Shown here: piece after piece, positions 7,990-51,288 of the stretch
Layout of the letters: each line of letters starts with the position of its first letter
Position numbering within the stretch: the first letter of the stretch is position 1
Assembly (NCBI GenBank): GCA_010909165.1
Contig: MU008178.1
Location: 880,369 to 944,368 of the forward strand
Length of the DNA stretch: 64,000 bases
DNA from: Anthoceros angustus
Taxonomy: Eukaryota > Plantae > Anthocerotophyta
Reading direction: 5' to 3'
Program-made: the position numbers and the translations under genes
The notes under the pieces: generated by a model
What the model saw: the letters and a program-made list of their open reading frames with translations, nothing else
Told to the model about the DNA's origin: nothing
The model's database searches: none

Positions 7990-8465
7990 CCATCCCCATC
8001 ACCACATCCCACATCCCCACATCCCATCCCATCCCATCCCCACATCCCACATCCCCACATCCCACATCCCATCCCATCCCCCATCCCATCCCACATCATC
8101 CCATCCCACATCCCACATCCCCACATCCCATCCCACATCCCATCCCATCCCATCCCCACATCCCACATCCCATCCCACATCCCACATCCATCCCCACATC
8201 CCATCCCCATACACATCCCACATCCCACATCCCCACATCCCCACATCCCATCCCATCCCACATCCCCACATCCCATCCCATCCCACATCCCATCCCCACA
8301 TCCCATCCCCACATCCCCACATCCCATCCCCATACCCACATCCCATCCCACATCCCATCCCCACATCCCACATCCCACATCCCCACATCCCACATACCCA
8401 CATACCCATACCCACATCCCACATACCCCTACCCACATACCCACATACCCACATACATACCCATC
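7990..8465. repeat. Irregular C-rich/G-rich simple satellite built from CCCAT, CCCACAT and CCCCACAT units
   Basis: Directly visible ~475-bp run. Units drift to CCCACATA/CCCATA at the right end. Confidence 0.95.
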
Positions 8466-14961: not shown

Positions 14962-15126
14962 GGCATGCTGTCAAGGCATCTCCTCTACACAAAGCGAAAG
15001 AGTGGCAACTTAGTTTGGCATGCTGTCAAGGCATCTCCTCTACACAAAGCGAAAGAGTGGCAACTTAGTTTGGCATGCTGTCAAGGCATCTCCTCTACAC
15101 AAAGCGAAAGAGTGGCAACTTAGTTT
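14962..15126. repeat. Three perfect 55-bp tandem repeats
   Basis: GGCATGCTGTCAAGGCATCTCCTCTACACAAAGCGAAAGAGTGGCAACTTAGTTT starts at 14962, 15017 and 15072. Three degenerate copies recur at ~16727-16875. Confidence 0.95.
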
Positions 15127-18100
15127 GGCAAAGGATGGTAGTCCCCGATGCTCAGTTTGGACCTTCCCGTCCTTACAAGGGATCCCACCTGCAAAATCTG
15201 AAGAGGTGCCATGCTCTCCCATCGGGAGAACGCAAGGCTCCGCACTCGATTTAGGGACTCGCCATAGCTTGTTTAGCATGACGAGAAGCCTCCCATTGTT
15301 GTGCCGCCACTAACTTATAATAGTGCATTTACAACACACCGTTTGATGGTTTTATGGGGCGACATCGATTGCACAAGTTCCTCCACCCATGCCTTTGGAA
15401 AAGGTGAGGCTTGCAATAGCATCCACCTTTTCGGTGATTGTCTCCGCCAACGCCCCACAAGGTGATATTGGGATGTCCAAAGGGGAGGCATCCATTGAAC
15501 CCGGCTTCTTCTCCTTGGGCAGCTTTCTGGGGAAGGAGGAGATCCAGCTGCCCCTTTTCCTTTCCGCTTCTTCTGCAATTCCCATTTCTCCACCAAGTCA
15601 TCCGCTCCATCTCGCCACGGCTTGTACGCCACATACCTACTCCACAACCACCTCTTCTCCCGTGATGATTCCTTCGGACGGCATCAAGCATGCGAGTCCA
15701 TATAGAATTCCTGCCGTTGCAAGCTTCGGGTGTCTTTGTCGGCTCGTACGCTTAGGATCTCACCACCGTGCCTTCTTCCCCTCCTTTGGCATCCGAGAGA
15801 ATGTGGTCGCGGATGAGTTCCTAGTTTCCACTATAGGAAGCCGCAGTTGGTGGGAAAAAGATGGCTCATAAAGGCGCTGTGGCGAATCCTGTCTACATAT
15901 TTGCGGTGCTATGCATGCGAAGTGTGAGAAGCCAACACCTCGTCTCGAGTTGCTCGGCTTTTATCCCAAGCTTGCTTTTTGTCTTTAAGCGCTCGAAATC
16001 GGATCTTCACGATTCATCAGACTCTCCTGGCTCCAAACACATGCCATAAGGACCAGCAGCAAGCTTTTTATGCGCGCTAAGGTTAGAGATGAGCGAGTCC
16101 CTTTGTATTCATATACAGTGCAGGTATGATGGCTTGATCAGCCACCATTGCCGCTTCGTCTTCACCTAAGACCACAGCTCATTGCCCCCTGGTCACCCCA
16201 GCGCGTATTCTCACGACTCTTATCGCCTGTTAAGGTATGCATTTTGAGGTAATCTTGTTCCATGTTGATTGCAATTTGGCCACTATGAGTTTGTAGGAGT
16301 GTCGATGCATCCCTTGACCACAACCACCGGTACCTATGCTTCCAGATGCCAAGGAATAAGCAGGCAATGCCTTCGAGAACCCTCTCATTTCATGCGAGCC
16401 AAACAAGAAGACCAAAAACTAGCTACCCACGGTATTCTATATGGGGAGGATGCCATCGATGCGCGATGGGGAGTGCATCACGCCGAGAAGCGGTGGATGT
16501 GGTCGATAGGCTCAAGGTCCAAGTACATGCGATTGGGTGAAGGGGTGAGAAGTCAAGCGAGTGGGAAGATGTCAAGATGAGTGATGAAGGAAGAAGACCG
16601 TCACCCGCTCCTTTACCTAGGAAGTCTACTTGATTGAATAGGAGTGCGGCCCACGAATGACACCAACCAAGTTTCGGTAGTTGATGACCTTGTAATTGGA
16701 AGTGATGTGGATGGACAATCGATCAGAGGCATCTCCTCTACACAAAGCGAAAGAGTGGCAACTTAGTTTGGCATCACAAGGCATCTCCTCTACACAAAGC
16801 GAAGAGTGGCAACTTAGTTTGGCATCTTTGTCAAGGCATCTCCTCTACAAAAGCGAAGAGTGGCAACTTAGTTTGGCAAAGGATGGTAGTCCCCGATGCT
16901 CAGTTTGGACCTTCCCGTCCTTACAAGGGATCCCACCTGCAAAATCTGAAGAGGTGCCATGCTCTCCCATCGGGAGAACGCAAGGCTCCGCCACTCCCGA
17001 TTTAGGGGACTCTGCCATAGCTTGTTTAGCATGACGAGAAGCCTCCCGCTGTTGTGCCAGCCACTAACTTATAATAGTGCATTGCACAACACGCGCACCG
17101 TTTGATGGTTTTATGGGGGCAGCATCGGTGCACAAGTTCCTCCACCCATGCTGGAAAAGGGTGAGGCTGCACCAATTGCAATAGCATCCACCTTTTCGGC
17201 TGATTGTCTCCGGCCAACCCGCCCCACAAGGTGATATTGGGATGTCAAGGGAGGCATCCATTGAACCCGGCTTCTTCTCCTTGGGCGGCTTTGCGGGAAG
17301 GAGGAGATCCATTGCCCTTTCCTTTCCGCTTTTACGCAATTCCCATTTCTCCACCAAGTCATCCGCTCCATCTCGCTTATACCAGCCTACATACCTCTCC
17401 ACAACCACCTCTTCTCCCGTATATGATTCCTTCGGACGGCAGATCATCAGCTGTAGCCCCATATAAATTTCGCAGCTTGCAAGCTTCGGGTGTCTTTGTA
17501 TGCGGCTCAGTGAAGCAGGATCTCACCACCGGTGCCTTCTTCCCCTCCTTTGGCATCCAGAGAATGTGGTCGCGAGCGGGATGAGTTCTGAAGCTAGTTT
17601 CCACTATGAGGAAGCTGCAGTTGGTGGGAAAAAAGATGGCTCATAAGGCGCGAAATTTGGCTGGCAGATCCTGTCTACATATTTGCGGAGTGCTATGCAT
17701 GCAGAGGTGTGGGAGAAGCCAACACCCTCGTCTCGAGTTGCTCTGGCTTTTATCCCGAAGCTTCGGCTTTTGTCTTTAAGCGCTCGAAATCGGATCTTCA
17801 CGATTCATCAGACTCTCCTGGCTCCAAACACATGCCATAAGGACCAGCAGCAAGCTTTTTTATGCGCGCTAAGGTTAGAGATGAGCGAGTCCCTTTGTAT
17901 TCATATACCTGGTGCAAGGTATGTTACTATGGCTTGATCAGCCACCATTGCCGCTTCGTCTTCACCTAAGACCCTGACTCATTGCCCCCGGTCACCCAGT
18001 AGTATTCTCACGACTCTTATCGGTAAGGTATGCATTTTGAGGTAATCTTGTTCCATGTTGATTGCAATTTGGCCACTATGAGTTTGTAGGAGTGTCGATG

Positions 18101-18540
18101 CATCCCTTGACCACAACCACCGGTACCTATGCTTCCAGATGCCAAGGAATAAGCAGGCAATGCCTTCGAGAACCCTCTCATTTCATGCAGAGCCAAACAA
18201 GAAGACCAAAAAACTAGCTACCCACGGTATTCTATATGGGGAGGATGCCATCGATGCCGCAGTGGGGAGTGCATCACGGCCGGGAGTAGCGGTGGATGTG
18301 GTCGATAGGCTCAAGGTCCAAGTACATGCAGTTCTGGGTGAAGGGGTGGAGAAGCTGCAAGGCAGGTGGGAAGATGTCAAGATGAGTAAACGAAGGAAGA
18401 AGAAGACCGTGTCACCCGCTCCTTTACCTAGGAAGTCTACTTGATTGAATAGGAGTGCGGGCCCACGAATGACACCAACCAAGTTTCGGTAGTTCGGTAC
18501 TGACCTTGTAATTGGAAGTGATGTGGATGGACAATCGATC
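14962..18540. repeat. ~1.75-kb tandem segmental duplication (14962-~16725 vs ~16727-18540) containing a Harbinger-like Myb/NAM-associated ORF remnant on the minus strand
   Basis: The copies are co-linear: both begin with the 55-bp array then GGCAAAGGATGGTAGTCCCCG, and both end with GGAAGTGATGTGGATGGACAATCGATC. The minus strand encodes KLQSTWNKITSKC (ORF 16230..16415). The Myb-like assignment is tentative. Confidence 0.8.
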
Positions 18541-18939
18541 AATGTGGCTTCAGTGGCTGGTCTAGGTATGTGCGTGCCGAAGATAAATTCAAAACCAGTT
18601 CAAGTCTGCGAGGCAACGAGTATTTGAGCGTGGCTTGCACTGTGAGCAATGAGGCCGGAGGCGGTCTGACATGATGTGGTGTTGGGATGGTCGCAGAATG
18701 TGACATTGTTGTGCCCAATAGTCCGGCTCCGTCTTTCATTATATAGCAAATAGTCTGCCGCGCTCGCCTGCTCATGATGGGGAAGGGGCAGCATCGTAGA
18801 TGATTTTGATTCTGTTCTTGCCCATGCTCCTAACCTCGAGACGCACGTTGTGGCATTGATGTCTCTGAGCTTGGCCCTGAGCAGGCACTCCATGGCACTT
18901 ATCAAAACCTGGACCTGGGATCACTCACCCTCAAACAAA

Positions 18940-19112
18940 TGCGCCTCGCGCCTAGCCTAGCCTCGCACCTCACGCCTAGCCTAGCCTCGCACCTCGCGCC
19001 TAGCCTAGCCTCGCGCCTCGCGCCTAGCGCCTAGCCTAGCCTCGCGCCTCGCGCCTAGCCTAGCCTCGCGCCTAGCTATAGCCCTATGGCGCCTCGCGCC
19101 CTAGCCTAGCCT
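18940..19112. repeat. GCCTC/GCCTA pentamer array (hAT-like subterminal repeats)
   Basis: Repeated CGCGCCTCGCGCCTAGCCTAGCCT. The same array occurs at 28059-28150. Confidence 0.7.
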
Positions 19113-19116
19113 CCAA

Positions 19117-19680: not shown

Positions 19681-19684
19681 ATTA

Positions 19685-19850
19685 ATAGTAAATAGTAAAT
19701 AGTAAATAGTAAATAGTAAATAGTAAATAGTAAATAGTATATAGTATATAGTAAATAGTAAATAGTAAATAGTAAATAGTAAATAGTAAATAGTAAATAG
19801 TAAATAGTAAATAGTAAATATTAATAGTAAATAGTAAATAATAAATAGTA
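19685..19850. repeat. (ATAGTAA)n 7-bp microsatellite
   Basis: About 20 consecutive units, with ATAGTAT variant units near 19735-19750. Confidence 0.95.
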
Positions 19851-21622
19851 AATATAAATAAATAGTTTGGGCTATTGTAAAGTATTTCAAAATTATCCTA
19901 TAAAACAAAATTGCCAACATTGCTATATTTACTAGGCAAAAATCCTACAGACTCTACTACAACACTACCATAGTAGTCTCTGTAATTAATTTATAATTGC
20001 TAACTTTCAACCATCTCCAATTCATAAGAGGCACGAAAAATACTGACATCAAAGAGGTGTTCATCATTAGATTGAGCCCTACTTAATAGCTTTGTACAAT
20101 CAAGGCGTTTAATAGACCATTACCTACAATCATGCGGAAGCATTATTCTTACGCATGAAGGAAGCATATGGTTTTAGCATAAAACCATCATCTTCAACAA
20201 TGTTGTGATAGATAGCCTCCATCACCTTGGCATCGACTCTTCAATTCCATACTACTGCGGCAATCAAGTCGTTCCACATAGTTAAAGCCTTCATCTTCTT
20301 CCCATTTGAGTGCTTGTTGTTGAACCATCCGAGGAGGCGGTGTCCACTCTCCTTCCAATATGCATTCAACTCTTGACCATGAACCTAGTTTGGGCCATAG
20401 TAGCAATCTCTTTGTGGGGCTCTTACCAAACCTACCTTCATCACAAGCCACAAAGGCCTTTTGGCCTCCATTGCCAAAATGGCGATAAAGGTTTGATCAT
20501 GTTTGTTGCGGCACCTTACCTTTGGGATGGGGCCACTACCCCATCCCTCTTGTCATTCCTCCTTCAAGAAAATGCGCTGCTCCTCCTTCACAGTTGGGCC
20601 TCACCTTCTTGACTCGTCAAAAGGTTCCTAGCTTCCCTCACATTGTTCCTCCAAAACTTAATATTCGAGAAAAGCGCATTACAATGGCATCCATAGTCCA
20701 AGGACCGGATATCAATATGCGAATGTTAGATTCACAAGGAGTCTACCCTGGTCTCATCCCAAAAGCTTTGTACCAATGGATTGCAAAAAATCTCATGCTC
20801 CGGCAACCTTTGGTCTCTCATGTGCACCCAGGAATTGGTGTCATGCTTGATGAATCCTACAGCCAGCGAAAAAGCAATACAACCATAGTTAGAATCTAAC
20901 AATGAAACACTAACCACTCAAAGCTTGAAAATCAAGCTCACGAATATTCGAGGCTTGAACAACATGCCTAAATCTTCAAGCTTGAACATGCACGAATATT
21001 TGAAGCAGAACAACACATATTCAGCTTGAACACAGATATTGAGGCTTGAACATACGATCTAAACAACGAGCGATGACACACTCCTATGGTACACGGAACT
21101 ACCCGTAGGAAAAGAAGACGGTGGCACTCAAATCTACTTGTGTAAAAGGAGAACAGAAATTAAATCAACTTACCTGACACAGGACATATATCCTCTTCGG
21201 GAATATCATACTCCACATCAAAATTTCTTCAACGCTTCACGGAAGGGCGAAGGACGATCTCGCCGACATCTTACGACGACATCGCCTCACCCATGTCGCA
21301 CACGGCTTTAACCTCTTGCTCACCGGTCCTCTTCAATACTTGGGAATGGGGTCCTTTGACCTCTGGAAGGAGTGGAGCTTCCTAGGTCCTTCATGAATCT
21401 CACATCACAAGGGGAATCGCCGCCATCGACTTGACTATCACACACTTCAAATACCTCATCATAAGGCGAGACATTCGAATGGATGGACACAAGGGTTTTC
21501 GGGCATTGTACAGTTAGGCATAGACCCCGAGGCACAAAATCAACATGAGGCATGGTGGGACCAAAACGTGGAATTTGCTGCAGGATCTTGGGAGACACCC
21601 TGCATAATGTTTACCGTGGTAT

Positions 21623-24600
21623 TGTGGCGTGACTTTTGCTGATGGCCTAGGCGCGCACAATCCGTGTCGTTGTAGGAAGAAGTCCGTTCCCAAAGGAATG
21701 ATAGGCCCGTTTACCGCGTTTGGTGATTCTTTCCTTAGCGCTCGTTCGGTCTCGCACACACGCTCTAACTACTCTAGCGTTCACCGTCTCGGTATGGCCA
21801 AGCGTTTGAGACCCGTTCGCGTCCGTATCGTTCACGCCATCCCTCACGCATCGGTCCTTTCCTCTCTCCCTCACGCTCTCTTGATCTTAGAAAAAAGCGC
21901 GGTTCTGTGATCGGACCTCCTCAAATCGTTCGCGGGCCTCTCGTCCGGGCTCTACACGCCCTCCGGGTTCCTCCGGCTCACACGTTCCGGTCATTCGGTG
22001 TCGGACGCGGCTCTCGAACGACACGGATCACCCTTCCACACGCACACACCAGCGTTAAGTCTCACGGGACCTTGATCAATCTCCCGGGCGCCGTGCACCT
22101 TTCGGTGACTCGGGACTCACGTTAGCAGAAGACTCACAAGGTGCAGCAGCATCAACACCAAGAAAGATGCTTTACTAGGCTCGGCCCTCTTATCTGCGCC
22201 CAAGGTGGCGTCTTTACACCCCTATTACGGCGATAGCCACGGTATACCTAATCGGCCGCCTACCGGCCTATCCCCCTATCTCCTTCCATTGGGGTGGGAA
22301 GGTCACAGGCCCGCCTCGGAATGGGTGGTCAATCCCCGTCACAGCGGTTGTGGTGCACCCAATCGGATGATCCGTGGCGGGCCCCTCCTCTCCCGGAATC
22401 ACAGTCGGGTTGGGCTGGCGGCGGTCGACAGCCGCCCGTTACCACGGCGTCATCCTCCCTGGCCTCCACAGGTCCTTGCGGTGGGGCCACCGCTATCGGC
22501 TCCCCTAAGCGTAAGTCGAAGGGGCTCCTCCTTCTTGCGTCGGTCCTCGAGGTCTGTCTCGACTCCACGAACTTGAGTCAAACTAGGTCCCGGCTAGGTC
22601 ACCTTGTCTCAGGGTCCGGACCTCGGGGTCGGTTATTAGTCGGACTTGGTCGGACTTATTCTGGTCCGGACTTGAGTCGGACTTATTCAGTCCGGACTTG
22701 GTCCGGCCTCCCCTCAGGTCCGGACAAAGTCGGACTCACGCCACCGGGTTTCCTCCCTCACGGGACTCCTCAGTGGCTCTCCCTCGAAGTCCTCCCCGAT
22801 CCTTGACTCGCCGTTGGCCCCTCCTTCCATGGTGAGGTCTCGGGGTGCTTACCTCGATCGCATCGCGCTCCCTCGTTACGCTCCTCGGTTGCTCCTCTCC
22901 GCGCTCCGTCATCTCAAGCAGGGGCCACTAGGGTCCCTGTCTTGTCCCCGTGGCCTTCATCTCCTTGAGCCTTCCGGTCCGTCCGTTTCTGACGTCGAGA
23001 GGCTTCTCGCCTTGGGGCTCGGCGTGGTAATAGGCAAAATGCAGATCGACTTGTTGGTGCCTCTTCCACGTGTGCGGGCACCGATACTCCCTCGCCATAA
23101 GTGTTTGGGCGTCTTTGCCCGGCTTGTTGGGCCACCTCTCCTGCCCGGTTGTGGTGGGCGCGTATCACGCGAGGCTACAAGGCGGCCTCGGTCACCTCCT
23201 GCAGTGCCATTGTTGCTCCCCTCGGCTCCGTCGTTTCCTCCATTGACTTACCGCCATAGGCGGCGTTCCCTTCCGCCTTTCTCGGTGGACCCGGCTTCTT
23301 TTACGCTTCCGATTGCGCTCCTCCGTTCATTACGGCCTTTAGCTCATGACTCCCTCTCCAGTGATCGGATACCTCCGTCAGCTCGGGACTTCCTCCGGCT
23401 CATACAGCAGCAGCGTCCAACTCCTTGGATAGTCGCGATTTTCCTCCGTCTTGAGGCCGGGGGCACTCTGTACATGCTTTCGAGTCGTGGATTCTCTCGT
23501 TGAGAATCACTGCTTTCAAGCGCATCTTGGGTTGTAGCTCCGGCGTGTCCTTCTTGTCCTCCATCTGCTGCGCCTCTCCTTCTACCTCCTGCGGTTGTAC
23601 TCGGAGATCCTCTATCTCCCGTCTTGGCCTTACACTCCATAGCCCTTTGTCGGCCTTGAGTAACCTCATTTTGCTGGCTCTCTCCACGGTTCGATCACGT
23701 GCAGTGATCCGGTCGCTCTTCGGCTTGAGCTCCTTCGCCGCCTTTACAGGCCTCGCCCACTTGGCCTGCTCTGGCGGGCCGCCTCCGCGGTCCGAGCTCT
23801 CTCTGCTTGTGCCGGGGCCTCTTCCGCCTCTGCTGCGCTTCCCTCTTGCACCAAGGTCCTCCGCCCGCTTGGGCCTCTGAGCTTGCTTGTGTTCGCCTGT
23901 GAAGAACCTTAACCAGTCTGCTTGAACCGGGCCTCGCGCTCCGCCACCGGCGTTTCCCTTCCTCGATCCGGCGAGGGACTCCGCCTTTCCTTTGCCCCTC
24001 AGGCGCCTTCACTTGCTCTTGGGTTCCACCATCCTCCTCGGGTGGCCTCCACTTCACAGGTCTTCTCCTGTACCACGAGACCCCAAAGCATTCCGTCCAT
24101 ATGTGGCAGGACTGTGTTTCTTCCACGCGGTGAGGCCCCACAAAGTCCGTAGTGGGGCCGGCATTTCTCGATCCGAGGACCTCCATACCTTGATCCGGAG
24201 TAAGTCGGTTGGGTTCTCGGACCTAATCGGGACCCTCGGGTCACAGTGGTGGTCAGTCTCACCCTCTTTGGCCCTCTTGGCCTCTAACTCCTTTGTGCCC
24301 TCTTTCTCACAGGGCTCGGAGGAGGTGAGGGGTCAGGAGCAAGCTCTTTTGCCCCTTCACAGCCGGGGCAGGACCGGCTCGAGGTGTGCGCGTGACCTCC
24401 ACTCCTTGGGCCACGTCCCTTTCTGCCCTCCTTAGCCTCTTGACCTCTTGCCACTCGTGGGCGGGGTAAGAATCGGCACCTCCCGAGGTCTTTGCGTTGG
24501 TAAGCGGCCGTCTTCCGCCTCTTGGCTCCCTGAGTTCGTCGGGGCTCGGTCGTGGTTGTTGGGCATTGTTACTGCGGTCGGGCCCGCCCTCGGCATCGGC

Positions 24601-26025
24601 TCCCTCTGTGCTCGGAGGGCACCAAAGGAGGAAGGGAATCGCCTCCCAAACTTCACAGGTGGTGAGGGGTTCGCTCGCGTATGGAGTCAGGAATCCTCGA
24701 TCGTCCTCCTCCGAGTCAGCTTGGTCTTGAAGGGCGACCCCCACCTCAGGCGCCCTTGCGCTCTACGCGGGGCCTCCGGCCCCTTCCGGGCGCCCTCAAG
24801 CTCTCCCTCCTTGAGCTCGAAATGTCCCCATACATGAATCGGTATGGGGTCGGCGATAAGGCTTCTCGCTCCTTAGCTTCGTGCCTCTGGACAGGCGAAG
24901 ATAATCCTTCCCAGTCCGCTCTCTTCCCATTGGGCGCGAGAATACCAGGTTATCACCAAGGTGATCCACCTTGGTGGCGAGTTCAATGGACAATGATCCG
25001 GGCTACCGCCCTTACTCGTATCCGGCGGATCGGATATCAACCATCCGTTGGTTGTCATGCGTTCGAGCCTCGGCCGCGTGGCGGCCCTATCTTCCCGCCT
25101 TAAGGGGCTCGCGCCCCTTCTTCCTCCTTGGGCGGTTGTAGGCCATCCTCGGGACCTCAAGGTCCGCCTCGGGTCCTCCGGAGGTTCTTGGATCGGACCT
25201 CCTTGTTGATCGCCTTGACATCTTCGGGCAAACTCCGGACTAGAGTAGCGTTGTCAAAGGTCCGGACCATTTGGAACACGTCCGGATACTCCTGCACCAA
25301 TTCCTGCTTCCTCCGGCCGGGGCCGAAGTCCGGATAGCGCGGGTCACAATGTTGCGCTCCACGAGGTCCATGGCTCCCAGTTTCCGGCTTTTGGGTGCCA
25401 TTGCTTCTCCTCCTCTTGTTCTTTGTAGGCTGCTGGCGAGGTCCGGCAGCGATGTTCCTCCTTCGCCCGCGTTGCTCCAACCTTGCGGTGCGCGCTCTAA
25501 GTGGCGCCCAATAGCGCGAGCGGATTGCGGGCGCAAGGGGATGAGGATTGCAGGCTGCGTGAGACCTCCCTCCTTGGCGCTTGTGGAAAGTAGCTGGCGG
25601 AAGGCGCCTCTTCGTTGTCTAGCGCGAGGTGCATGGCTTACTCGACCCTCGCTTCGCTTACTCGGCCACCGCCGCGCGGCCAGGCGTGAATACTATGCGG
25701 CCTGCAGCAGGTTACGGTCTGGCCTCTGCATGCCCGACCTCCACTCGGGGCCGTCCACGTGGCGCCGCCTCGTCATCCTCACGCCTCGCTCCTGGGTTAC
25801 TTTCACTGGCGTACTTATCCTATTTTGACACTGGGTGGGTTCGGACTTATCCGTTACTCGGCGTGGGAGCTTGCCATAGTGTCGGGGTCCGTTGTTCACT
25901 CCAGTCGGAGTATACTCGAGCCTCGTCCGGCGCTACCCCAATTTATTCCTCCTTTTAGCCTTATTTATCCTTCAATCCTAAAAACAAACCCTACTTATTT
26001 TAACTCCTGCAGTGCATAGCCCACA
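21623..26025 (-). mobile_element. Solo LTR (4403 bp) of Gypsy family 2
   Basis: Termini are TGTGGGCTATGCAC...GTCACGCCACA, flanked by GTAT at 21619-21622 and 26026-26029. Co-linear with both LTRs of the 34079-51284 element. Confidence 0.93.
22730..25401 (-). pseudogene. LTR-embedded accessory ORF (frameshifted in this copy), solo-LTR copy
   Basis: ATG at 25401 (MAPKSRKLGAMDLVERNIVTR), then YPDVFQMVRTFDNATLVRSLPEDVKAINKEVRSKNLRRT, SIELATKVDHLGDNLVFS, GRIIFAC, VILNERIHD...SKELDAAA and NTYGEGVSVPAHVEEA in successive ORF fragments. The end is approximate. Confidence 0.65.
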
Positions 26026-27480
26026 GTATCCTGACTGCCTGCAGCATCCCATCTCCACCAGCTGAGGGCATCTGATTACATGCTTGTTTGGATATCTCGC
26101 CATGAAGAGGATACCTGGCCATCTCAATGACCCACTCTGGCATTTCCTTCAATTTCTCACCCCTAGATGCGTGTTCAGGCTTCAATTTTGATCGAGGCAC
26201 CTCATGGTACGGCGATTGTGGCACCCTGGACACCTCTGAGTCTTGTCCAGATGTTGGCAGCAGCGATGCAAGGGGCTCACGTCTACATCTCACTTGCCTC
26301 ATCACGGCCTGCATCTCGCCAGGGACAGCAGATGTCGTGAAAATCGACATGGGGGCACTTCCCCCGCAAACGCAGCCAGGAGTTCGTCCATCCCCATGCG
26401 CCGAAGTGACGGCTGATGCAATCCCATCCCACTGTCTTGCAGCCCTCCCAGAACACGGCGCACTGCGGCGGCGCCATCCCATCCCCACGCCACGGGTGCG
26501 GCCGACGCCCATCTCTTTGCTTGGCCCTTTGCCCCTACCACGTGACCTGCCACGAGAAGATTCCCTTGCCCCTTTCCCACGCGCCCCACGTCCAGGGTCC
26601 TCCTCCTCTACCACCCTGCACGGTCCTGAATGATTTCTTGCTAAAGATACATAGGGAGACTTCCCACACTTGCCTCATCCTCGCACAATACTGCTAGTGC
26701 ATTCGACGGCATATTGGCTCTCGGAATCTGCATCAGATAGCTCTTTCTCGAGAACGTGAGTTGCCTCCATCCTTCTGGATTTGAGCTTGCTCCATTTCTC
26801 CCTCAAGCGGCGCACCCAACATTGCTTTTGCACCCAACAAGTTCACCGCTATTCACACCTTGTGAGTCCTCGAGCCCCATACCACCGCGTACGCAGCGCT
26901 GGCGTCTCCACATGTGAGCTGTTGTTGCCAAGCATAATGTCACATGTTGCCTCGCTTGAAATATCGGCTTCTGTGTTTGGGCATCCGAACATGAGCGAGT
27001 AGCAGATTGCGGCAAAGACACAAATCAAGATATGCAGCCATGCCTGAGAAGCAAGCAAAAAGCAACAGACAAAGGTGGAGTATTGTGTTGTAGTTCTGTC
27101 TCCTGTACCTTGACCTCACTGTACAATGTCGCGACTATCCGCGCTGTAAAACCCGGGTCAGATGCGCTATGAAGTGGCTGCTGTAAACCTAAAGGCAAAG
27201 ACGTATCGATTAGGAAGACGGGGTAACGGCTACCTGGCCACGGGCGGGAATGCAACCGAGGTACTAGACCCCGCTCAAAGCTTTGGCGGGAAAGGACGGG
27301 CTCGGAACGCAGTTAAGTTTTAGCTGTCGGTTTTGTACAATGGTGGCAGCCGGAGAGCTCCCGTGAAAAAACGCGTTGCTAGCATATACAGTACAAAGTA
27401 TGAGAAGCATTCAGTCTGTTGCTTGCAGGAATGCCAACACTGGCAACACAATTTTGTTTCCGTCTGACATCTTGAAAACA

Positions 27481-28047: not shown

Positions 28048-28150
28048 CAAGGTTTTTAGAGGCGCGAGCTCGCGCCTCGCGCCTAGCCTAGCCTCGCGCC
28101 TCGCACCTAGCCTAGCCTCGCGCCTCGCGCCTCGCGCCTCGCGCCTAGAT
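28048..28150. mobile_element. hAT-like element end: CAAGGTTTTTAGAGGCG followed by a CGCCT array
   Basis: CA..GTTTT terminus, a 20-bp palindrome GAGGCGCGAGCTCGCGCCTC (28059-28078), then GCCTC/GCCTA repeats. The partner end was not identified. Confidence 0.4.
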
Positions 28151-29089
28151 CTGAGGCCCTAGACCCCATATATCTAAGCCGACACATTTTCTAGTACAAC
28201 CCAGAGAAACATGTCGACCCATGGCCCCAACAGTCCCCGAAGCTGTAAGGTCACTTGTCCTCATGACAATGCGGGACCTATCCCTTGGTGAGGCTACTAC
28301 AGATAAGGTAGTTTCTCAGATTTGTAAAGGCTGAAATCAATTAAAACTTACAATAGACAGTGAATATTCCCCGAGTGCGCACTGTGACCTATCTCGTGAG
28401 GATGATATTGGGGCCGAGGTATGTTAACCCCAAAATGTTGAAGGGGGTTTTCCCTTGTTTTGAGGGAATTACTGTTTATAAGTAATAAGTAATTGAGGAA
28501 ACACCCCTTCCATATGTTCTTGCACTGTAACTAGTTGGTGATCCTAGTCAGGAAGGGAGGGAGGGTGCTAGCTAAAGCCTATAGCTACGTGGCACCGAAT
28601 TCGAAGCTGGGTATGGAGCTGGTCCGGAACAAGACGTTGGTGAAGATTTGGAGTCTACCACGTGGGGCGAGCTTTTCACCTCCTTCTCTATCCTCGATCG
28701 CAGACTGATGGCCATCCTATAGGAGCTGTACATGTGGAAGTGCATAAAAACAAGCTTGGCACATATGAGAAGATTATCATTCCTGACCTAGTGAAGGCGA
28801 GTGTCAGAAGATGAGGCCTGCAGATGGCGTAACATCCTCGTGGTGTCATGGAAGGCATTGAGGAGATACCAAATTAGAACCCTTTTTGCAGCAGGACCTA
28901 GATGACTCTTCCTCGAATGCCAATTTGGAGGCAGTGCAAGTGCTGAGAGCTGCCTTGCTAGCTTCAATTGAATCAGTGGTTGCTGCTGATAACTCAATTT
29001 GTGTAGGGTGTTGTGTGGATTCGGAAGGTGCCCGCAGATCTGAAGAATTGGTGAAAGCTCTGTTGGTTGCGGGCTCATCATAGGTACGT

Positions 29090-29708
29090 AGTCAAATGAC
29101 AGACTTGCAACATACAAAAACTTGAAGATGAAAGAAGGAGAATCCATTGAAAAACACGACTACCTTCGGATCCCTAAGTCTCCAAGTTTGAAAGTCTGCC
29201 GAGGATAGTGTGAAGGACCAGCTCTCATTCATTTCATGATGTCACTCCACGAATCTTGGGCACATTTTGACCTCATTCAACACCTCTACAAAACTACGGA
29301 AGATTGCCCAGTGCGGTGTTGATCTCCCAAAACAACATTTGCGTGGTGGGAGCTCTTCTTCGTGAAGAAGTCACAAGAGGACAATTCAAACGTCGTCCGT
29401 AAACAGCAAGCTTTGTACACTAACAACAAAGGAAAGGGCAAGAAGCCCAACTTGAGGTAGACAAAATACCTCGGTGCTAGTAGCTCAAGGAGCCTCTACA
29501 CCAAGAAGCCCAAGAAGGCTGGAAAGTGCCACGTGCCAAATTCCGAGGCCATTGGGAGTCCGAGTGTCGAAAAAAGCGGTCAGTACCTGAGGAGGGCAAC
29601 TCCACTTCGAGACACATGTTGTGGTGACTAACAAGGCTGGCTGCACCCCTCACGTAGGGACCAGGAGTTTTCCTACCCTCTTGCTAACCCCATGCTCCAA
29701 ATACTCAA
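29090..29708 (+). pseudogene. Displaced duplicate of the Copia gag segment (matches 31045-31679)
   Basis: Near-identical sequence from AGTCAAATGACAGACTTGCAAC to CTCTTGCTAACCCCA. Confidence 0.9.
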
Positions 29709-29737
29709 TTGGTTTGCACCATTTCCATATTTCGTAA

Positions 29738-29748
29738 TGGTATCGAGC
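29738..29748 (+). promoter_or_regulatory. Primer-binding site, tRNA-iMet type (one base missing)
   Basis: TGGTATCGAGC versus the canonical TGGTATCAGAGC, immediately after the LTR end. Confidence 0.8.
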
Positions 29749-30759
29749 AATGCTAGGTGCGATTGCATTCACAAGAATGCACATTAAATTGTGCACATGT
29801 TGATGTGCATAAATGTTCTTTGTGTTTGTTTCTTGATTAGAAATTAGTTTCTAATAAGAAATCAAGAAAATGTTTGAGAAACCTTTTGTAGCTATTTTTT
29901 TGATTTGTTAATAGAAATTTTGCATTTCTAGGAGCCGTTCTAAGCGCATCTCGATTGTTGCAAAGCAATCATCATCGACACGCTAGAACGATGCAAATAT
30001 CTTTATAAAATCATATAAAATTACAATATGTTTCTTGGAATTTTCCAAAACACAGAATTCGCCAAATGAATGGCCGATCCTCGGGCAGGCGGAGGCTGGA
30101 TGGCGCCAAATACAACATGGTGCAAGAGAACGCGTGAGAAGAACTCTGCGATCTTCACCATCGCGCGCCCCTCGAGGACTCCACAATCTCCCAAATGTGC
30201 AACCGCCATTGTTGGTAGCGCAATCCTCGGGTTTCCTAACCACAAGCGTAGCACCACATACCATCACACATTTAAGTTCTAGACTAGAATCACAATGACA
30301 TGTAGATGACGTTTTGAAACATAAGTCGAAAGCTTGTCTTTCGAGGACTTACAATCGTTCTTTGGATCAGTTGGTCACTTGGATTCAAATTGCTTGCTTT
30401 GTTGAGGCTGCTCTTCTTGCTAACCACGCAATCGGAGGGACACTTGTAAGCATGCTACAAAAACTAACAAGCATCACAAATTTGAGAATCCAAACTCGTG
30501 TCCATCCATGACCTATTCCTTTAATCGGAGATTAGGAAACACAACATAAGGGAAAAGGTAGATAGGAGTTGGTCAATTTGCAGGTGACCAACGATCGAAC
30601 CCATCTTACCTCAGAAAGCTGCATTTGCAGCCCATCCTGATACGCGTGCATCATCACTCTTCTCGAATCCTCACACTGTTAGCTTGCACAGTCACAGTGC
30701 ATTAGAAATTCATCCATAAAATCCTCCGTGAGGGGACTAACATCCTAAACATGGGTGAC

Positions 30760-33700
30760 TCTAATTTAGCGGGAGGATTCAAAGAGAAGGATAGATTCAT
30801 GAGATTATGACATCTGGGTACTTAGAATGCGTGGTGCCCTTCAAAACAAGCGAGTGGCCTTGGGTTCATGGGACGTCAAAGTCTCCCAGATGGCACCCCT
30901 CCGATCAGGCACTTGATGCTTGGACCACAAAGGATGAGGGCAGTTCCTCCTACGGAGTGGTCTCGGCCCGACATGTTGAGACAGACCTCAGTTCAAAACC
31001 TCATATTTGGACGGCTCCAAAGTCTATTTTTGGGCGATGACACAAGTCAAATGACAGACTTGCAACATACAAAAACTTGAAGATGAAAGAAGGAGAATCC
31101 ATTGAAAACACGACTACCTTCGGATCCCTAAGTCTCCAAGTTTGAAAGTCTGCCGAGGATAGTGTGAAGGACCAGCTCTCATTCATTTCATGATGTCACT
31201 CCACGAATCTTGGGCACATTTTGACCTCATTCAACACCTCTACAAAAACTACGGAAGATTGCCCAGTGCGGTGTTGATCTCCCAAAACAACATTTGCGAA
31301 TTAGTGGGAGCTCTTCTTCGTGAAGAAGTCACAAGAGGACAATTCAAACGTCGTCCGTAAACAGCAAGCTTTGTACACTAACAACAAAGGAAAGGCAAGA
31401 AGCCCAACTTGAGGTAGACAAAATACCTCGGTGCTAGTAGCTCAAGGAGCCTCTACACCAAGAAGCCAAGAAGGCTGGAAAGTGCCACCGTGCCAAATTC
31501 CAGGCCATTGGGAGTCTGAGTGTCGAAAGAAGCAGTCCGGAGTACCTCGCAAGGAGGGCAACTCCACTTCTCAGACACATGTTGTGGTGACTAACAAGGC
31601 TACCGCAGCCCTCACTGTAGGGACCAGGAGTTTTCCTACCCTCTTGCTAACCCCACATGCTTGTCTCGCAAATACTCAAGGCAAACCCATACAGAGTGGT
31701 TCCTTGATACAGTAACAAGACATCTGCTTTTAAGTTCATTCGTACATACAAAGTTAGTTCACAATGATTTGTTTACCTAGGTGATTTATAGTAGGCTTGC
31801 GTGCTCGGTGTTGGCACTGTTACCGTCCCTTCGTGCATCACACTCTTGCTTACGATGTGTATCATGTGCCCGAAATGACAAGAAACTTGATTGTTAGAAG
31901 GTTGAACATGGATAATCAAAGTCACATCCTCTTCACTCCGGCTGAATGTAGGATTATAGATGCTTTTGATCATCGCAAAATCCTAGCCTATGGATCATCC
32001 GACCATGATCTCTTTAGACTACACCACATGCCAAGGCTAGCCTAGCTTCAAGGTCGCTCGAGAGCAAAGCAAGAAGAACAAGCTAGGTTATGGCATGCAC
32101 GCTTAGGTCACCCTCACAACAAAGTTGCAAAAACTAGCTAGTGACTGTGACTGATGGTAAAATTGGCGCTTGCCATCCTTACCTCTCCGTGAAGCCTGTG
32201 CTGTCCAAACGTCATCAAGCAGCCTTCAAGAACAAGACTCCTCACGAGCTTCCAAGTGCTTGAACTTGTGCACATCGACATATGTGGGCCACTCTCGCCC
32301 TCAAGGTGGTGGCCGATACTTCCTTACATTTGACAAGACGAGATTTGTCATGGCTTACATCTTGAAAGCTAAAAGTGAATGCTTCTCTCGCTCAAAGACT
32401 ACATGAAACTTGCAGAGATGGACAGGAAAATCACCGAAAGTCCTACGCCCGCATAATGGTGGAGAATTCACATCTAACGAATTCCGCACTCACCGCAAGG
32501 ACCGAAGGATAGGCGTACAACTTACGTTGTTGCCGCAGCACGTGGCGCCGAGCGCTTGAATGACACCCAGCAGAGATGGTCTCCTCTATGCTCACCAAGC
32601 CTCCCACCATCTCATCGGGTCAAGCCCTGAGTTTGTATGTAAGCTGAATAATCTCAGATTGGATGCATCGCCGCCATCCCTAAGGCGCTTTAACAACCGT
32701 TAGCTGCTAAGGCCAAGAAGTACCTCATGATAGGATACATCAAGGTATAAAAGCTTATGATGACGCACTTTAACAAGGTGGTCTATGCACGGAGTGTGAC
32801 CTTTGATGAAGGTCGAACTTGGCGACAAGTGGGAGCTACTCCCCACAGAGGACTTGATCTTTCCGCCTTTGCCCCGACGCCACTGCTTTTCGATGATTCC
32901 GCTCTTGCGGAGATTGCTCCCGCAGGGGGAAGAATAACAAGAAAATGATGCTCATGAGCAAGGAGATGAACCCGAAAAATTTTGGTCGAACATTTGCAAA
33001 GTAAGAACCTCCTCCAGCCTGCGTAACCTCAACCAACGTGACCTTTTACCCGATCCACTGACTCGATCCACATTGAGGAGGATGAGGTCAAGATGCTCAT
33101 CTTCGACATGAGAGGTTGAACTTTGAGATTCAATCTCAAGCCCACCACAACCCCGAGCCCGTTATCCCTGCAAGAGATAGACGGCACCAGACATTACCAC
33201 CATGTGGACTTTAGAAACTAATACCAATGCAGCCACTGGATCCTATCGAACCTCAATCCTACGAAGAAGCTCTTGGCACAATCGATGTTGCAGAGTGGAA
33301 AGGCAATTCAATTAGAATATGATTCACTGATCAAAATGGAACATGGGAACTAGCTAAGTTACCTCGGACGTAAGGTGGTGTTGCAAGTAGGTCTTCAAAT
33401 AGAAGGTAAAGGCGATGGAAGCTTTGATAGGTACAAAGCACGACTTGTAGCTCGTGGCTTTGCAAGTGCCCCAGTCTCGATTATCAAACATATGCTCTGT
33501 GATGAAGCCGGGCCACCTTTCGTTAACTGCTGGCAAAAGACATCAAGACTACGAGTTAGACATGTTTGATGTAAAGACCGCATTTTACATGGCAAGTTGG
33601 ACACCAAATCATGCAGAACTGTGATACGTAAGTAAAAGGCAAGGAAGATCATGTCTTGCGCTAATAAAACCCTCTATGGCTCAAGCAATCAGCATTAGAG

Positions 33701-34078
33701 TGGAATTCCGGATGAAGAATCATGGCACTTGGATTCGTGAAATGTGTTTTGCAGTTAAAGAACCTCAATGTTTATGATCCGTGATTAGCTATCTCGCAGT
33801 TGTATGTTGATGATTTGATTCTATCCTCGCAATAGCCCCACATTCATCACCAAAGTTAACAAGTCGCTATCTACCAAGTTTGAAATGACTAACCTTGGAG
33901 CACTTCGTGAGCCTCGGAACTTATTCAGAGGGATAGAAAAATGATCTATATCTCTCACATACCGACACTGTTAGAATGTCTTTCTTGGCTTGAAGGATGC
34001 AAATCCAACAAGCGACTCCACCGCCATCCGACTGAAATTTAAAGTCCATGTGTCCTAAACCAAAAAGGACATAGAAGA
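30760..34078 (+). pseudogene. Copia gag-pol, 5' part (gag, pre-integrase, integrase, RT N-part)
   Basis: Manual translation gives YKNLKMKEGESIEK (gag, ~31065), ARLWHARLGHP (~32083), LELVHIDICGP (~32261) and EPQSYEEAL...GDGSFDRYKARLVARGF (33245-33465). Many frameshifts. Confidence 0.9.
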
Positions 34079-37000
34079 TCAGGGCTATGCACTCTGGGAG
34101 TTAAGAAACAAGTAGGGTTTGTTTTTTGGATTGAAGGATAAATAAGGCGAAAAGGAGGAATAAATTGGGGTAGCGCCGACGAGGCTCGAGTATACTCCGA
34201 CTGAGTGAACAACGGACCCCAGACCACTATGGCAAGCTCCCGACTACGCCGAGTAACGGATAAGTCCGAACCCACCCAGTGTCAAAATAGGATAAGTACG
34301 CCAGGAAAGTAACCTAGGAGCGAGGCGTGAGGATGACGAGGCGGCGCCACGGACGGCCCCGAGTGGAGGTCGGGCATGCAGAGGTCAGACCGTAACTTGC
34401 CGAGGCAGAGTATTGTATTCACGCCCGCGGCCGCGGCGAAGGCCGCAGCGGGCGTAGGGTCGAGTGCATGCACTGGCGCATGGACAACGAAGAGGCGCCT
34501 TCCGCCAGAAGCTTTCCACAAGCGGCCAAGGAGGGAGGTCATGGCCGCAGCCTCCGCAATCCTCAGCCCCTTGCGCCCGCAATCTCCGGGCGCCATCTTT
34601 TGGGCGCCCTTTAGAGCGTGCCATGGTTGGAGCAACAACGCGCGAAGGAGGAACATCGTGCCGACTCGCCGCCAGCCTACAACAAGAGGAGGAGAAGCAA
34701 TGGCACCCAAAAGCCGCGGAAGTCTGGGAGCCATGGACCGTGGAGCGCAACATTGTGACCCGCTATCCGGACTTCGGGCCCGGCCGGAGGAAGGGAATTG
34801 GTGCAGAGTGGCATCCGGACGTGTTCCAAATGGTCTCGACCTTTGACACTAGTCCGGAGTTTGCCCGAAGATGCCGGCGATCAACAAGGAGGTCCGATCC
34901 AAGAACCTCCGGAGGACTGAGGCGATGGACCTTGAGGTCCCGAGGATGGCCTACAACCGCCTCAAGGAGGAAGAAGGGCGGTGCCGAGCCCCTTAAGGCG
35001 AAGGGAAGATAGGGCCACGCGATGCCGAGGCTCGAACGCAGGGACAACCAACGGATGGTTGATATCCGATCCGCCGGATACCGAGTAAGGGCGGTAGCCC
35101 GATCATTGTCCATTGAACTCGCCACCAAGGTGGATCACCTTGGTGATAACCTGGTATTCTCGCATGCGCCCAATGGGAAGAGAGCGACTGGGAAGGATTA
35201 TCTTCGCCCGCCTGTGAGGCACGCAAGCTAAGGAGCGAGAAGCCTCGCCATCGGGCCGACCCCATACCGATTCATGTATGGGGACATTTCGAGCTCTAAG
35301 GAGGGAGAGCTTGAGCGGGCGCCTAAGGGGCCGGAGGCCCCGCTGGCAGAGCGTGCAAGGGCGCCTGAGGTGGGGGTCGCCCTTCAAGACCAAGGACTGG
35401 AGGAGGACGATCGAGGATTCCGACTCCATACGCCGGAGCGAACCCCTCACCACCTGTGGAAGTTTGGGAGGCGATTCCCTTCCTCCTTTTGGTGCCCTCC
35501 GAGCAGCAAGACAGAGGGAGCTGGCGGAGGGCGCTCCCACGCAACAATGCCAACAACCACGACGGCCGAGCCCCGACGAACTCAACGGGAGCCAAGAGGC
35601 GGAAGACGGTGCCGCTTACCAACGCAAAGACCTCGAAGGTGCCGACTTACCCCCGCCCACGAGTGGCAAGAGGTCAAGAGGCGGTAAGGAGGGCAGAAGG
35701 GACGTGGCCCAAGGAGCAGGAGGTCACCGCGCAGCCCCACCTCGAGGCCCCTGCCCCGGCTGTGAAGGGGCAAAAGAGCTTGCTCCCGACCCCTCACCTC
35801 CTCCGAGCCCTGTGAGAAAGAGGGCACAAAGGAGTTAGAGGCCAAGAGGGCCAAGAGGGTGAGACTGACTCACCACTCAGACCCGAGGGTCCCGATTAGG
35901 TCCGAGAACCCACCGACTTCCCGGATCATATGGAGGTCCTTGGCGGACGAGAAATGCCGGCTCCCACTACGGACTTTGTGGGGCCTCACGCGGCCGTGGA
36001 AGAAACACGGCGAAGTCCTGCTACATGGACGGAATGCTTTGGGGTCTCGTGGTACAGAGAAGACCTGGAAGTGGAGGCCACCCGAGGAGGATGGTGGAAC
36101 CCAAGAGCAAGTGAAGGCGCCAGGGGCAAAGGAAAGGCGGAGTCCTCGCCTGATCGAGGAAGGGAAACGCTGGCGAGCGCGAGGCCCGGCGGTTCACAGA
36201 TCGGGTTAAGGTTTCACCGGCAAATCAAGCAAGCCTGGGAGGCCCAAGCGGGCGGAGGACCTTGCAGCGGAGGGAAGCGCAGGAGGCGGAAGAGGCCCGG
36301 CACAAGAGAGAGCTGGACCGGAGGCGGCCCAGAGAGCGCCAAGTGGGCGAGGCCTGTAAAGGCGGCGAAGAGGGGTCGCAAGAAGAGCGACCGGATCACT
36401 ACAGACGGATCGGAACCGTGGAGAGAGTAGAAAATGAGGCTAAGGGCCGACAAAGGCCATGGAGGAGTAAGGGCCAGACTGGAGATAGGATCTCCGAGTA
36501 CACCGCAGGAGGTAGAGGAGAGGCGCAGATGGAGGACAAGGACACGCCGAGCTACAACCCAAGATGCGTAAAGCAGTGATTCTCAACGAGAGAATCCACG
36601 ACGAGCACGAAATAGAGTGCCCGGCTCAAGACGGAGGAAAATCGGCATCATCCAAGGAGTTGGACGCTGCTGCCATGTATGAGCCGGAGGAAGTCCGAGC
36701 CTGGACGGAGGTATCCGACCGCCTGAGAGGGAGCCGCGAGCTAAAGGCCGTAATGAACGGAGGAGCGCGAGCACGGAAGCGTAAAAGCCGCCGTCCAAAA
36801 AAGGCGGAAGGGAACGCCGCGCTATGGCGGTAAGGCAATGGAGAGGAAACGACGGAGGAAGTGGAGCAACAGGCAGCAGGAGGTGACCGAGGCCGCTAGC
36901 CTCGCGTGATACACCGGCCCACCACAACAGAGAGGTGGCCCAACAAGCCGGGCAAAGACGCCCTCCCTAACACTTATGGCGAGGGAGTATCGGTGCCCGC

Positions 37001-39042
37001 ACACGTGGAAGAGGCAATTCAACAAGTCGATCGACTTTGCCTATTACCACCGAGCTCCCAAGAGAAGCCTCGACTCACGAAACGGACGGCCCCCGGAAGG
37101 CTCAAGGAGATGAAGGCCAGGGACAAAGACAGGACCCTAGTGGCCCCTGCTTGAGATGACGGAGCGGAGAGGAGCAGGAGGAGAACGAGGAGCGCGATGC
37201 GATCGAGGTAAGCACCCCGCACCTCACCATGGAAGGAGGCCAAGGAGTCACTGCGATCGAATGGAGGACTTGAGGGAGAGCCACTGAGGAGTCCCGTGAG
37301 GGAGGAAACCTGGGCGGAGTCCGGACTTTGTCCGGACTGAGGGAGGCCGGACCTCAAGTCCGGACTCGAATAAGTCCGACTCAAGTCCCAGAATAAGTCC
37401 GACTCAAGTCCGGACCGAATGTCCGACCCCGAGGTCCGGACCCCTGACAAGGTCGGACCTCGACCTGAAGCCGGACTCAAGTTCGAGTCGAGACAGACCT
37501 CGAGGACCGGATCACGAAGAAGGAGGAGCCCCTTCGACTTACGCTTAGGGGAGCCGAGAGGTGGCCCAACAAGCCGGGCAAAGACGCCCAACACACTTAT
37601 GGCGAGGGAGTATCGGCGCACACGTGGAAGAGGCAATTCCAACAAGTCGATCACTTTGCCTATTACCACGCCGAGCCCTCAAGGCGAGAAGCCTCGACGC
37701 CGAAACTGACGGCCCCTCGGAAGGCTCAAGGAGATGAAGGCCACGGGATGACAGGACCCTAGTGGCCCCTGCTTGAGATGACGGAGCGCGGAGAGGAGCA
37801 AATGAGGAGGTAACGAGGAGCGGATGCGATCGAGGTAAGCACCCCGCACCTCACCATGGAAGGAGGGCCAACGGCGAGTACCGGGCGATCGGGAATGGAG
37901 GACTTCGAGGGAGAGCCACGAGGAGTCCCGTGAGGGAGGAAACCTGGTGTGAGTCCGGACTTTGTCCGGACCCTGAGGGGAGGGACCAAGTCCGGACCAA
38001 TAAGTCCGACTCAAGTCCGGACCAATAAGTCCGACCAAGTCCGACCTGAATAACCGACCGAGGTCCGGACCCTGCAGACAAGGTCGGACCTAGCCACGGA
38101 CCTGTGAATAAGCCGACAAGTTCGTGAGAGAGACCCCGAGGACCGCAAGAAGGAGGAGCCCCTTCGACTTACGCTTAGGGGAGCCGATAGGGGTGGCCCC
38201 ACCGGGCGAAGGACCTGGGAGGCCGTGGAGGATGACGCCGTGGTAACGGCGGTCGATCACCCGCAGAGCCCAACCCGGCTGTGATTCCGGGAGAGGAGGG
38301 GCCCGCCACGGATCATCCGATTGCGCACCACAACCGCTGTGACGGGGATTGACCACCCATTCCGAGGGGGCCTGTGACCTTCCCACTACGGCAAGGAGAT
38401 AGGGGGAAATAGGGGTAGGCGTCGATTAGGGTATACCGAGCTATCACCGTAATAGGGGTGTAATAAAGACGCCACCTTGGGCGCAGATAAGAGGGCCGAG
38501 GTCGCCTAGTAAAGCATCTTTCTCTTGGTGTTGATGCCGCTCTGCACCTTTGTGAGTCTTCTTGCTAACGTGAGTCCCGAGTCACCGAAAGGTGCAGCCC
38601 GGGAGATTGATCAAGGTCCCGTGACGACTTAACGCTGTGGTGTGTGCGTGGAAGGGTGATCCGACTGCTCCCGAGTCCGCACCGAACGACTGAACGTGGA
38701 GCCGGAGGAACTCCGGAGGGCGTGTAGAGCCCGGACGAGAGGCCCGCGAACGACGAGGAGGTCCGGATCGAATCGCGCCTTTTTCTAAGATCAAGAGTGT
38801 AGCGTGAGGAGAGAGGAAAGGACCGATGCGTGAGGATGGTGAACGATACGGACGAACGGGTCTAAACGCTTGGCCATACCGGCCCAGACGGTGAACGCGA
38901 GTGAGTAGGGAGTATGAGACCGAACGAGCGCTAAGGACGAAGAATCACCAAACGCTAAACGGGCCTATCATTCCCTTTGGGAACGGACTTCTTCCTACAA
39001 CGGGATTGTGGCGCTACCGCCATCAAGAAAAGTCACGCCACA
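34079..39042 (+). mobile_element. 5' LTR (~4.96 kb)
   Basis: Starts TCAGGGCTATGCAC (variant of TGTGGGCTATGCAC), ends GTCACGCCACA, followed by the PBS. Confidence 0.9.
34700..37340 (+). pseudogene. LTR-embedded accessory ORF, 5' LTR copy
   Basis: ATG at 34700 (MAPKSRGSLGAMD). The same peptide blocks occur in the same order as in the solo LTR (ORFs 34376..34846, 35022..35231, 35274..35687, 36564..36833, 36906..37154). Confidence 0.65.
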
Positions 39043-39046
39043 TTTT

Positions 39047-39062
39047 TGGCGCTGCTGGGGAA
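39047..39062 (+). promoter_or_regulatory. Primer-binding site of the Gypsy element (duplicated at ~40193)
   Basis: TGGCGCTGCTGGGGAA follows LTR-end CA plus TTTT. TGGCG starts are typical of Athila/Tat-type PBSs; the tRNA was not assigned. Confidence 0.75.
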
Positions 39063-45662: not shown

Positions 45663-45689
45663 GCTTAGTGTTGGCGAGACGCCAATGAT

Positions 45690-45701
45690 GAGAAGGGAGT
45701 A
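45690..45701 (+). promoter_or_regulatory. Polypurine tract
   Basis: GAGAAGGGAGTA immediately before TGTGGGC, about 30 bp after the integrase end. Confidence 0.85.
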
Positions 45702-51284: not shown

Positions 51285-51288
51285 AAGA

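Follow-up and report, generated by a model that had tools for sequence, protein, structure and literature searches.

A putative accessory gene within the long terminal repeats of a Ty3/gypsy element of the hornwort Anthoceros angustus

Can the long terminal repeat (LTR) of a plant retrotransposon carry a gene of its own? Reviews, in the portions available to us, locate the extra open reading frames (ORFs) of plant elements between the LTRs, which they regard as regulatory DNA. The question is raised by a stretch of 64,000 nucleotides (nt) from Anthoceros angustus (assembly GCA_010909165.1, contig MU008178.1, positions 880,369 to 944,368; hereafter ‘the window’, to which all positions refer), in which three giant LTR copies each contain, on the sense strand, a putative ORF of about 900 codons. 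Support for its coding status is moderate, and we consider it probable that this LTR-borne accessory gene is real.

An initial annotation, made from the sequence alone, had listed three repeat copies, and self-comparison of the window returns the same three (A, B and C; Table 1), with A inverted relative to B and C; the copies are collinear and 84–87% alike, with 140–180 gap openings per 3.5 kb. Both insertions are flanked, as had been proposed, by target duplications, which are 4 bp long: GTAT around copy A (21619–21622 and 26026–26029) and AAGA around B to C (34075–34078 and 51285–51288), each with a chance of 1 in 256 of matching accidentally. A primer-site-like motif and a purine tract, also claimed earlier, are in place at the inner borders of B and C. 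The TG..CA ends ascribed to all copies are present in A and C, but copy B starts with TC. Since neither a primer site nor a purine tract lies alongside copy A, which has its own target duplication, A is a solo LTR, as annotated. The internal region measures 6659 nt, or 5526 nt once its tandem duplication is removed, in agreement with the earlier estimate of about 5.5 kb. Reverse transcriptase (RT), RNase H and integrase are collinear with fetched polyproteins (with scores that are weak because of frameshifts), and the pol frame stops 16 nt before the purine tract, so that no extra ORF fits in the 3′ part of the internal region. Together, the target duplications, the primer-site-like motif, the purine tract and the position of pol identify the long repeat as the LTR, and the element is a Ty3/gypsy LTR retrotransposon of about 14.3 kb without duplications. 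The repeat length of 4.4–5.6 kb given initially is to be corrected, the true unit being about 4.4 kb and the extra length consisting of tandem copies. The putative gene lies where it had been placed, downstream of the purine tract in the interval to the LTR end, and it is kept in the solo copy.

An uninterrupted ORF is seen in no copy (0/3; 38 breaks in A, 40 in B and 37 in C), and across the ORF span the sense strand stays free of stops for at most 202–252 codons, partly out of frame. The pol of the element is equally broken; the exons of a host ABCG gene in the window are unbroken. An exact three-way alignment, preferred over a MAFFT alignment that over-counted substitutions, gives 263 private indel events versus 154 private substitutions over the ORF span, with more transversions than transitions. 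Clean substitutions among the copies (those with four identical columns on either side) number four in the 2751 nt of the ORF span, of which two are silent (too few for dN/dS), and ten over the whole LTR (about 4330 nt). Additional material came from contigs of two runs of one sample, X1 and X2, which as contigs cannot show transcription starts; X1 possibly derives from the same sample as the window and is thus a second technology, not a second organism. Counting differences at a share of at least 30%, the short-read contigs of X1 depart from copy A at 118 indel places and 11 substitution places. We infer that the frames were broken by long-read errors which polishing did not remove from the repeats, and that the three copies are very young, with hardly any true difference between them. 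Peptide agreement among such copies carries no weight as evidence of selection: the common peptide blocks described initially do occur in order on the sense strand, but they represent one sequence seen three times rather than conservation. Summed contig depth is 2000–3200 over single parts of LTR C, 900–1030 over pol and 12–15 over most of the ABCG gene; these values are not copy numbers, but they show that the family is repetitive and that the ORF span belongs to its LTR.

The conserved ATG announced at about 620 bp into the repeat is found at LTR positions 625, 622 and 619 in the three copies, each time with A at −3 and G at +4. The proposed length of roughly 880 codons holds as an estimate (about 880–910), although the stop codon is not fixed. 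Sense stop triplets, counted if common to at least two copies, occur at 21.7 per kb over the ORF span versus 41.2 in LTR flanks of similar GC content (p 0.0004), and antisense stop triplets do not change over the span (p 0.32). A frameshift-tolerant amino-acid score, built on average residue frequencies, reaches z 3.0 (A), 3.0 (B) and 1.7 (C) in sense and 1.7, 1.2 and 0.3 in antisense; controls gave −1.6 to 1.2 for the LTR flanks (sense), 1.0 for pol and 1.9 for host exons with 3.5% added indels. The shuffles behind these values keep trinucleotides; under a looser shuffle, non-coding controls had risen to z 2.7. Triplet periodicity yields z 2.5–3.3 in A, 1.6–2.7 in B and 0.3–0.9 in C. Lag autocorrelation had too little power, and codon-position bias along the decoded path, being circular, was not used.

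One contig of X2, an RNA run, (1635 nt, depth 14) is a diverged relative that matches three short pieces of the ORF (23970–24290). Over eight codons compared by eye it differs from copy A at three sites, all silent third positions, in a frame that was chosen afterwards and that differs from the decoded path there. X2 contigs cover only 4 of the 30 bins of copy A and are not close matches, which for one sample, seen as contigs only, is no evidence of silence but does argue against much DNA in this run. X2 also holds spliced contigs of the host ABCG gene, and the relative hints at a second, transcribed LTR-ORF family.

A number of results weigh against a real gene. Since the three copies are one sequence, their coding scores are not independent; copy C is weak in both score and periodicity; and most of the signal of copy A comes from one 600-nt block (z 3.4–4.3), with the N-terminal part at z 1.1–1.9 and the linker at −1.0 to 1.0. 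When the copies are read through the majority gap pattern, no periodicity appears (z 0.3, 0.0 and −0.6), and avoiding the common stops required 11 frame switches versus 12.5 at random; errors common to all copies could account for this blank read-through. Two of the seven listed frame-shifting short-read indels lie within 9 nt of inferred breaks, as by chance, and independent decodings of the copies agree at just 44–51% of codon starts. One non-coding control reached z 1.7 in the frameshift-tolerant score. On the side of expression, five ATGs common to all copies lie upstream of the ORF, and the LTR contains no canonical TATA box.

Table 1. Features of the element and its LTR copies in the window (3′ ends of the putative ORFs and the start of gag-pol are approximate)
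Feature	Position	Strand	Basis
Copy A, solo LTR, unduplicated LTR unit, 4403 nt	21623–26025	−	Self-comparison, target duplication, no adjoining primer site or purine tract
Copy B, 5′ LTR, one extra 0.63-kb tandem unit	34079–39042	+	Self-comparison
Copy C, 3′ LTR, two extra 0.57-kb tandem units	45702–51284	+	Self-comparison; target duplication
Whole Ty3/gypsy element, copy B to copy C	34079–51284	+	LTRs, target duplication, primer-site-like motif, purine tract, pol
Putative LTR ORF, copy A, about 890 codons, 38 breaks	22726–25401	−	Decoding, coding scores, stop density
Putative LTR ORF, copy B, 40 breaks	34700–37370	+	Decoding, coding scores
Putative LTR ORF, copy C, 37 breaks	46320–49020	+	Decoding, coding scores
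Likely polyadenylation region (R/U5 border), AATAAA then U/GU-rich tract	38462–38540	+	Sequence read; equivalent in C at 50672
Primer-binding-site-like motif, right after copy B	39043–39060	+	Sequence read
gag-pol, frameshifted; RT, RNase H and integrase in gypsy order	40300–45668	+	Domain order, reading frames
Polypurine tract, right before copy C	45684–45701	+	Sequence read
Tandem units at ORF 3′ end, copy B, second copy of 0.63-kb unit	36930–38202	+	Repeat comparison
Tandem units at ORF 3′ end, copy C, second and third copy of 0.57-kb unit	48585–50235	+	Repeat comparison
LTR end, primer site and gag start, duplicated in tandem (about 1135 nt)	38755–41044	+	Self-comparison
Short tandem array, period 26, just past the putative ORF; B and C have comparable arrays	22633–22703		Repeat scan

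Where in the LTR would such a gene lie? An AATAAA occurs 580–612 nt before the LTR end in copies B and C, and a short-read loose end at 22216 shows, by eye, the same hexamer at the equivalent place of copy A. Taken as the R/U5 border, this polyadenylation-like signal puts the ORF in U3 or R; a location in U5 was rejected, the signal sitting downstream of the ORF. Given the five common upstream ATGs, a start site would best lie past LTR position ~460. The first 200 nt of the LTR are 50% AT versus 36–40% thereafter, with AATAAA-like hexamers at 61–83. An AATAAA at LTR position 79–83 is found in 3/3 copies, within an AT-rich first 100 nt (45702–45790 in C) just past the pol stop; this AT-rich start might act as a promoter, or as an early site of polyadenylation that ends the gag-pol mRNA before the LTR ORF.

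In the standard replication scheme, whatever follows the purine tract ends up in both LTRs and outlasts LTR–LTR recombination, as copy A illustrates. We propose, as the best explanation of the whole and with a confidence that only modestly passes the midpoint, a young Ty3/gypsy family whose 4.4-kb LTRs likely carry, probably within U3, an accessory gene of some 900 codons. Reverse transcription would copy this gene into both LTRs, and a solo LTR would keep it whole. It may have begun as an extra ORF of the ordinary kind, situated after pol and ahead of the 3′ LTR, that became enclosed when plus-strand priming moved upstream. The ORF would be read from a start site inside U3, as in the mouse mammary tumour virus (MMTV) model, and its transcript would end about 600 nt short of the LTR end, at the polyadenylation signal. 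By analogy with Grande GENE23 and the Retand extra ORFs (PMC7264820, PMC11963269), the likeliest role of the protein would be to regulate, from within the nucleus and also in trans, the transcription or RNA of its own element; given that the gene is real, we hold this role to be evenly balanced between true and false.

The same LTR can also be read as GC-rich non-coding DNA, or as a long-dead captured coding remnant, with a protein that was pieced together by eye from three noisy frames. A GC content of 61% makes stops rare, the read-through tests were blank, the signal is weak beyond one block, and agreement among the copies is mere identity. Such an LTR would nevertheless have to account for a halving of stop triplets that is strand-specific and confined to the ORF span, for scores no lower than those of genuine coding DNA with comparable noise, and, in a small sample, for the silent-site differences from the X2 relative; we regard this explanation as unlikely. 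Much less plausible, to the point of being very improbable, is a separate mobile element or captured fragment that was inserted into a short LTR in some copies only, an outcome that the initial annotation had named as counting against it. No short version of the LTR occurs in the window, where the LTR start and the LTR middle each match only the three copies; moreover, X1 contigs cover 30/30 bins of copy A, none of the four listed joints skips the ORF body, and no listed joint skips more than 74 nt.

A real gene might instead be part of a very long R. One promoter in the AT-rich first 100–200 nt would then start all RNA; RNA polyadenylated within the 5′ LTR, or within a solo LTR, would serve as the ORF mRNA, and gag-pol would be expressed via read-through and splicing or from a second start. 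This arrangement makes a second promoter unnecessary, agrees with the AT-rich LTR start and its hexamers, and has a precedent in rice Retrosat2, for which the available part of the source predicts that 244 nt of the 3.3-kb LTR are U3 and 2 kb are R (PMC3485330). However, four common ATGs between LTR positions 149 and 392 would precede the ORF, and by inference from the standard replication scheme the minus-strand strong-stop DNA would be about 4.3 kb long and gag would stand behind a 900-codon ORF. We consider a long R quite unlikely and retain the gene in U3 as the preferred reading.

The decoded protein, with X at each break, comprises 917–935 positions to the alignment end in the three copies, and the true stop probably lies slightly earlier, before the short tandem array. 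Its most prominent residues are glutamate, arginine, alanine and glycine, the frame of the linker being uncertain. No hydrophobic segment is present (19-residue hydropathy at most 1.15), so the putative protein is not env-like; it is predicted to be soluble and partly helical, and single-sequence models of a 75-residue and a 58-residue piece are helical (pLDDT 68 and 71). With Foldseek, the modelled pieces have no match at E 0.001, and in a separate comparison the best Z is 3.9; this does not demonstrate a new fold.

Homologues were sought with short, partly out-of-frame pieces, which makes these searches weak. None of 15 LTR pieces matches any Pfam family at E 0.1, including PF04195, PF10536 and PF03078, and one 153-residue piece searched with HMMER against 1.84 billion representatives retrieved no homologue of the ORF; the two HMMER hits were discarded, both being tandem-repeat proteins that align to sequence ahead of the ATG. 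Likewise, no match was obtained among 291 candidates of a protein collection restricted to longer proteins (nor among 7992 with a poorly tiled fragment alignment), among 285 stretches of metagenome contigs, or for 387 LTR pieces across 80 fetched retroelement loci. The ESM Atlas returned no usable match for two pieces (recognition 3346 and 1320), sequences of the PDB a single match at E 0.74, and Rfam none in the window. Given that no relative was detected, the putative protein could represent a new family.

If the gene is real, solo LTRs can keep coding capacity, and ORF surveys limited to internal regions would, as this case suggests, overlook an entire kind of gene; its 2.7 kb would also account for the giant size of the LTR. 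At its furthest, the proposal would be that a whole 900-codon accessory gene moved, with its own promoter, into the LTR of gypsy elements of non-seed plants; that each solo LTR is an autonomous expressed gene whose product, a member of a new protein family, regulates in trans or counters silencing; and that the gene also exists in a diverged sister family from which this host makes RNA. We think this extended version unlikely. If true, solo-LTR formation, usually taken as deletion of the element by the host, would leave the element's regulator behind, which raises the question of whether the process removes or spreads that regulator.

The copies also differ by local tandem duplications. The borders of the 0.57–0.63-kb units differ between B and C, and the duplication of LTR end and gag start has its junction at a short common purine-rich stretch. 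Because the 5′ and 3′ LTR of the same element carry different ones, these duplications are post-insertion or assembly-made. The tandem units of B and C found no confirmation in short reads; a short-read joint from 49716 to 48591 was rejected as proof of the junction in C, since it has only about 31 nt on one side, within the unit. A further local tandem duplication occupies 14974–18541, with identity at noise level like those in B, C and gag.

Elsewhere in the window, an intact and expressed full-size ABCG (PDR) transporter gene lies at 59673–64000 on the minus strand, with unbroken exons and introns of 80–150 nt; spliced X2 contigs match its exons without differences, and of 120 listed relatives the one highest in identity comes from a hornwort (79%, with 56% of the query covered). 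RT remnants occur on the minus strand at about 1000–3700 and at 57839–58534, the former resembling fetched gypsy polyproteins more than the studied element does. A broken stretch on the plus strand at about 29000–34078 is presumably a copia-like remnant, judging by eye from integrase and RT motifs; it includes a 620-nt direct repeat, and the gypsy element seems inserted into it. Simple tandem arrays are found at 7990–8456, 18941–19113, 19684–19860 and 28069–28146, those at 18941 and 28069 sharing one 24-nt unit family.

With respect to classification, no chromodomain follows the integrase before the pol frame stops, and the element looks like a non-chromovirus; its best fetched relatives are 36–59% identical over short RT pieces. 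The span from RT to integrase is about 612 codons versus 666 residues in one of the fetched polyproteins, which leaves no room there for the additional RNase H that is a Tat feature. Pfam is silent on pieces of the PR–RT spacer, yet it is nearly silent on true RT pieces too. Likeness to Phygy and Selgy extends, in the available part of the source, to a 4-bp target duplication, the lack of a chromodomain tail, a polyprotein that fills the internal region and a non-seed-plant host (PMC6317226). However, those elements average 8.6 and 5.0 kb and are described there without an extra ORF, compared with about 14.3 kb here, and the Phygy target is NCGN, whereas the targets here are GTAT and AAGA (PMC6317226). 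A primer site for tRNA-Trp or tRNA-Ala is a further Phygy/Selgy feature; the Rfam scan recovered no host tRNA in the window for comparison.

Extra ORFs of plant non-chromoviruses, as far as the accessible text of the sources goes, include the env-like/ORF-1 of Athila, the plant mobile domain of Ogre and Transposase_28 of Retand/Grande (PMC6317226, PMC7264820, PMC11963269), and they are placed in the internal region (PMC7264820). LTRs of up to about 5–6.5 kb are known and are described as non-coding in the same kind of partial view (PMC6317226, PMC6431247). The element of Anthoceros angustus shares with Athila, Ogre and Retand a long, family-wide accessory ORF of unassigned role and a non-chromovirus-like character, in a group in which LTRs of up to about 5 kb are known, but their ORFs are internal (that of Retand antisense), whereas here the ORF is sense, inside the LTR and without a transmembrane segment, and the interior holds gag-pol only. 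Athila additionally has its extra ORF between pol and the purine tract, where there is no room here, and 5-bp target duplications in 95% of cases according to the part of the source at hand, in contrast to 4 bp in 2/2 insertions (PMC6317226). Rice Retrosat2, RIRE3 and RIRE8 resemble the element in having LTRs of more than 3 kb, an orphan extra ORF (ORF0) and many solo LTRs; they differ in that ORF0 lies upstream of gag-pol and, in the available text, is not placed in the LTR, which is treated as non-coding for replication enzymes (PMC3485330).

No plant element with an LTR-internal gene was found in the literature searched, with subscription papers outside its scope, and an exact-phrase search for an ORF within an LTR returned retroviral papers only, judged by their listings. 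It is MMTV that shares a sense ORF wholly inside the LTR and duplicated with it, a feature that the Anthoceros element has by position and, if the frame breaks are indeed errors, by openness; a U3-internal promoter is the model proposed here. MMTV sag is about one third the length of the putative LTR ORF and encodes a membrane protein. In MMTV, the U3 holds the sag/naf ORF together with promoter P2, according to the available part of the source (PMC9412291). MMTV is a vertebrate betaretrovirus and the present element a plant Ty3/gypsy retrotransposon; we claim no homology, and the promoter here is only proposed. The layout, if the gene is real, is the accessory-ORF theme of plant elements in an MMTV-like arrangement.

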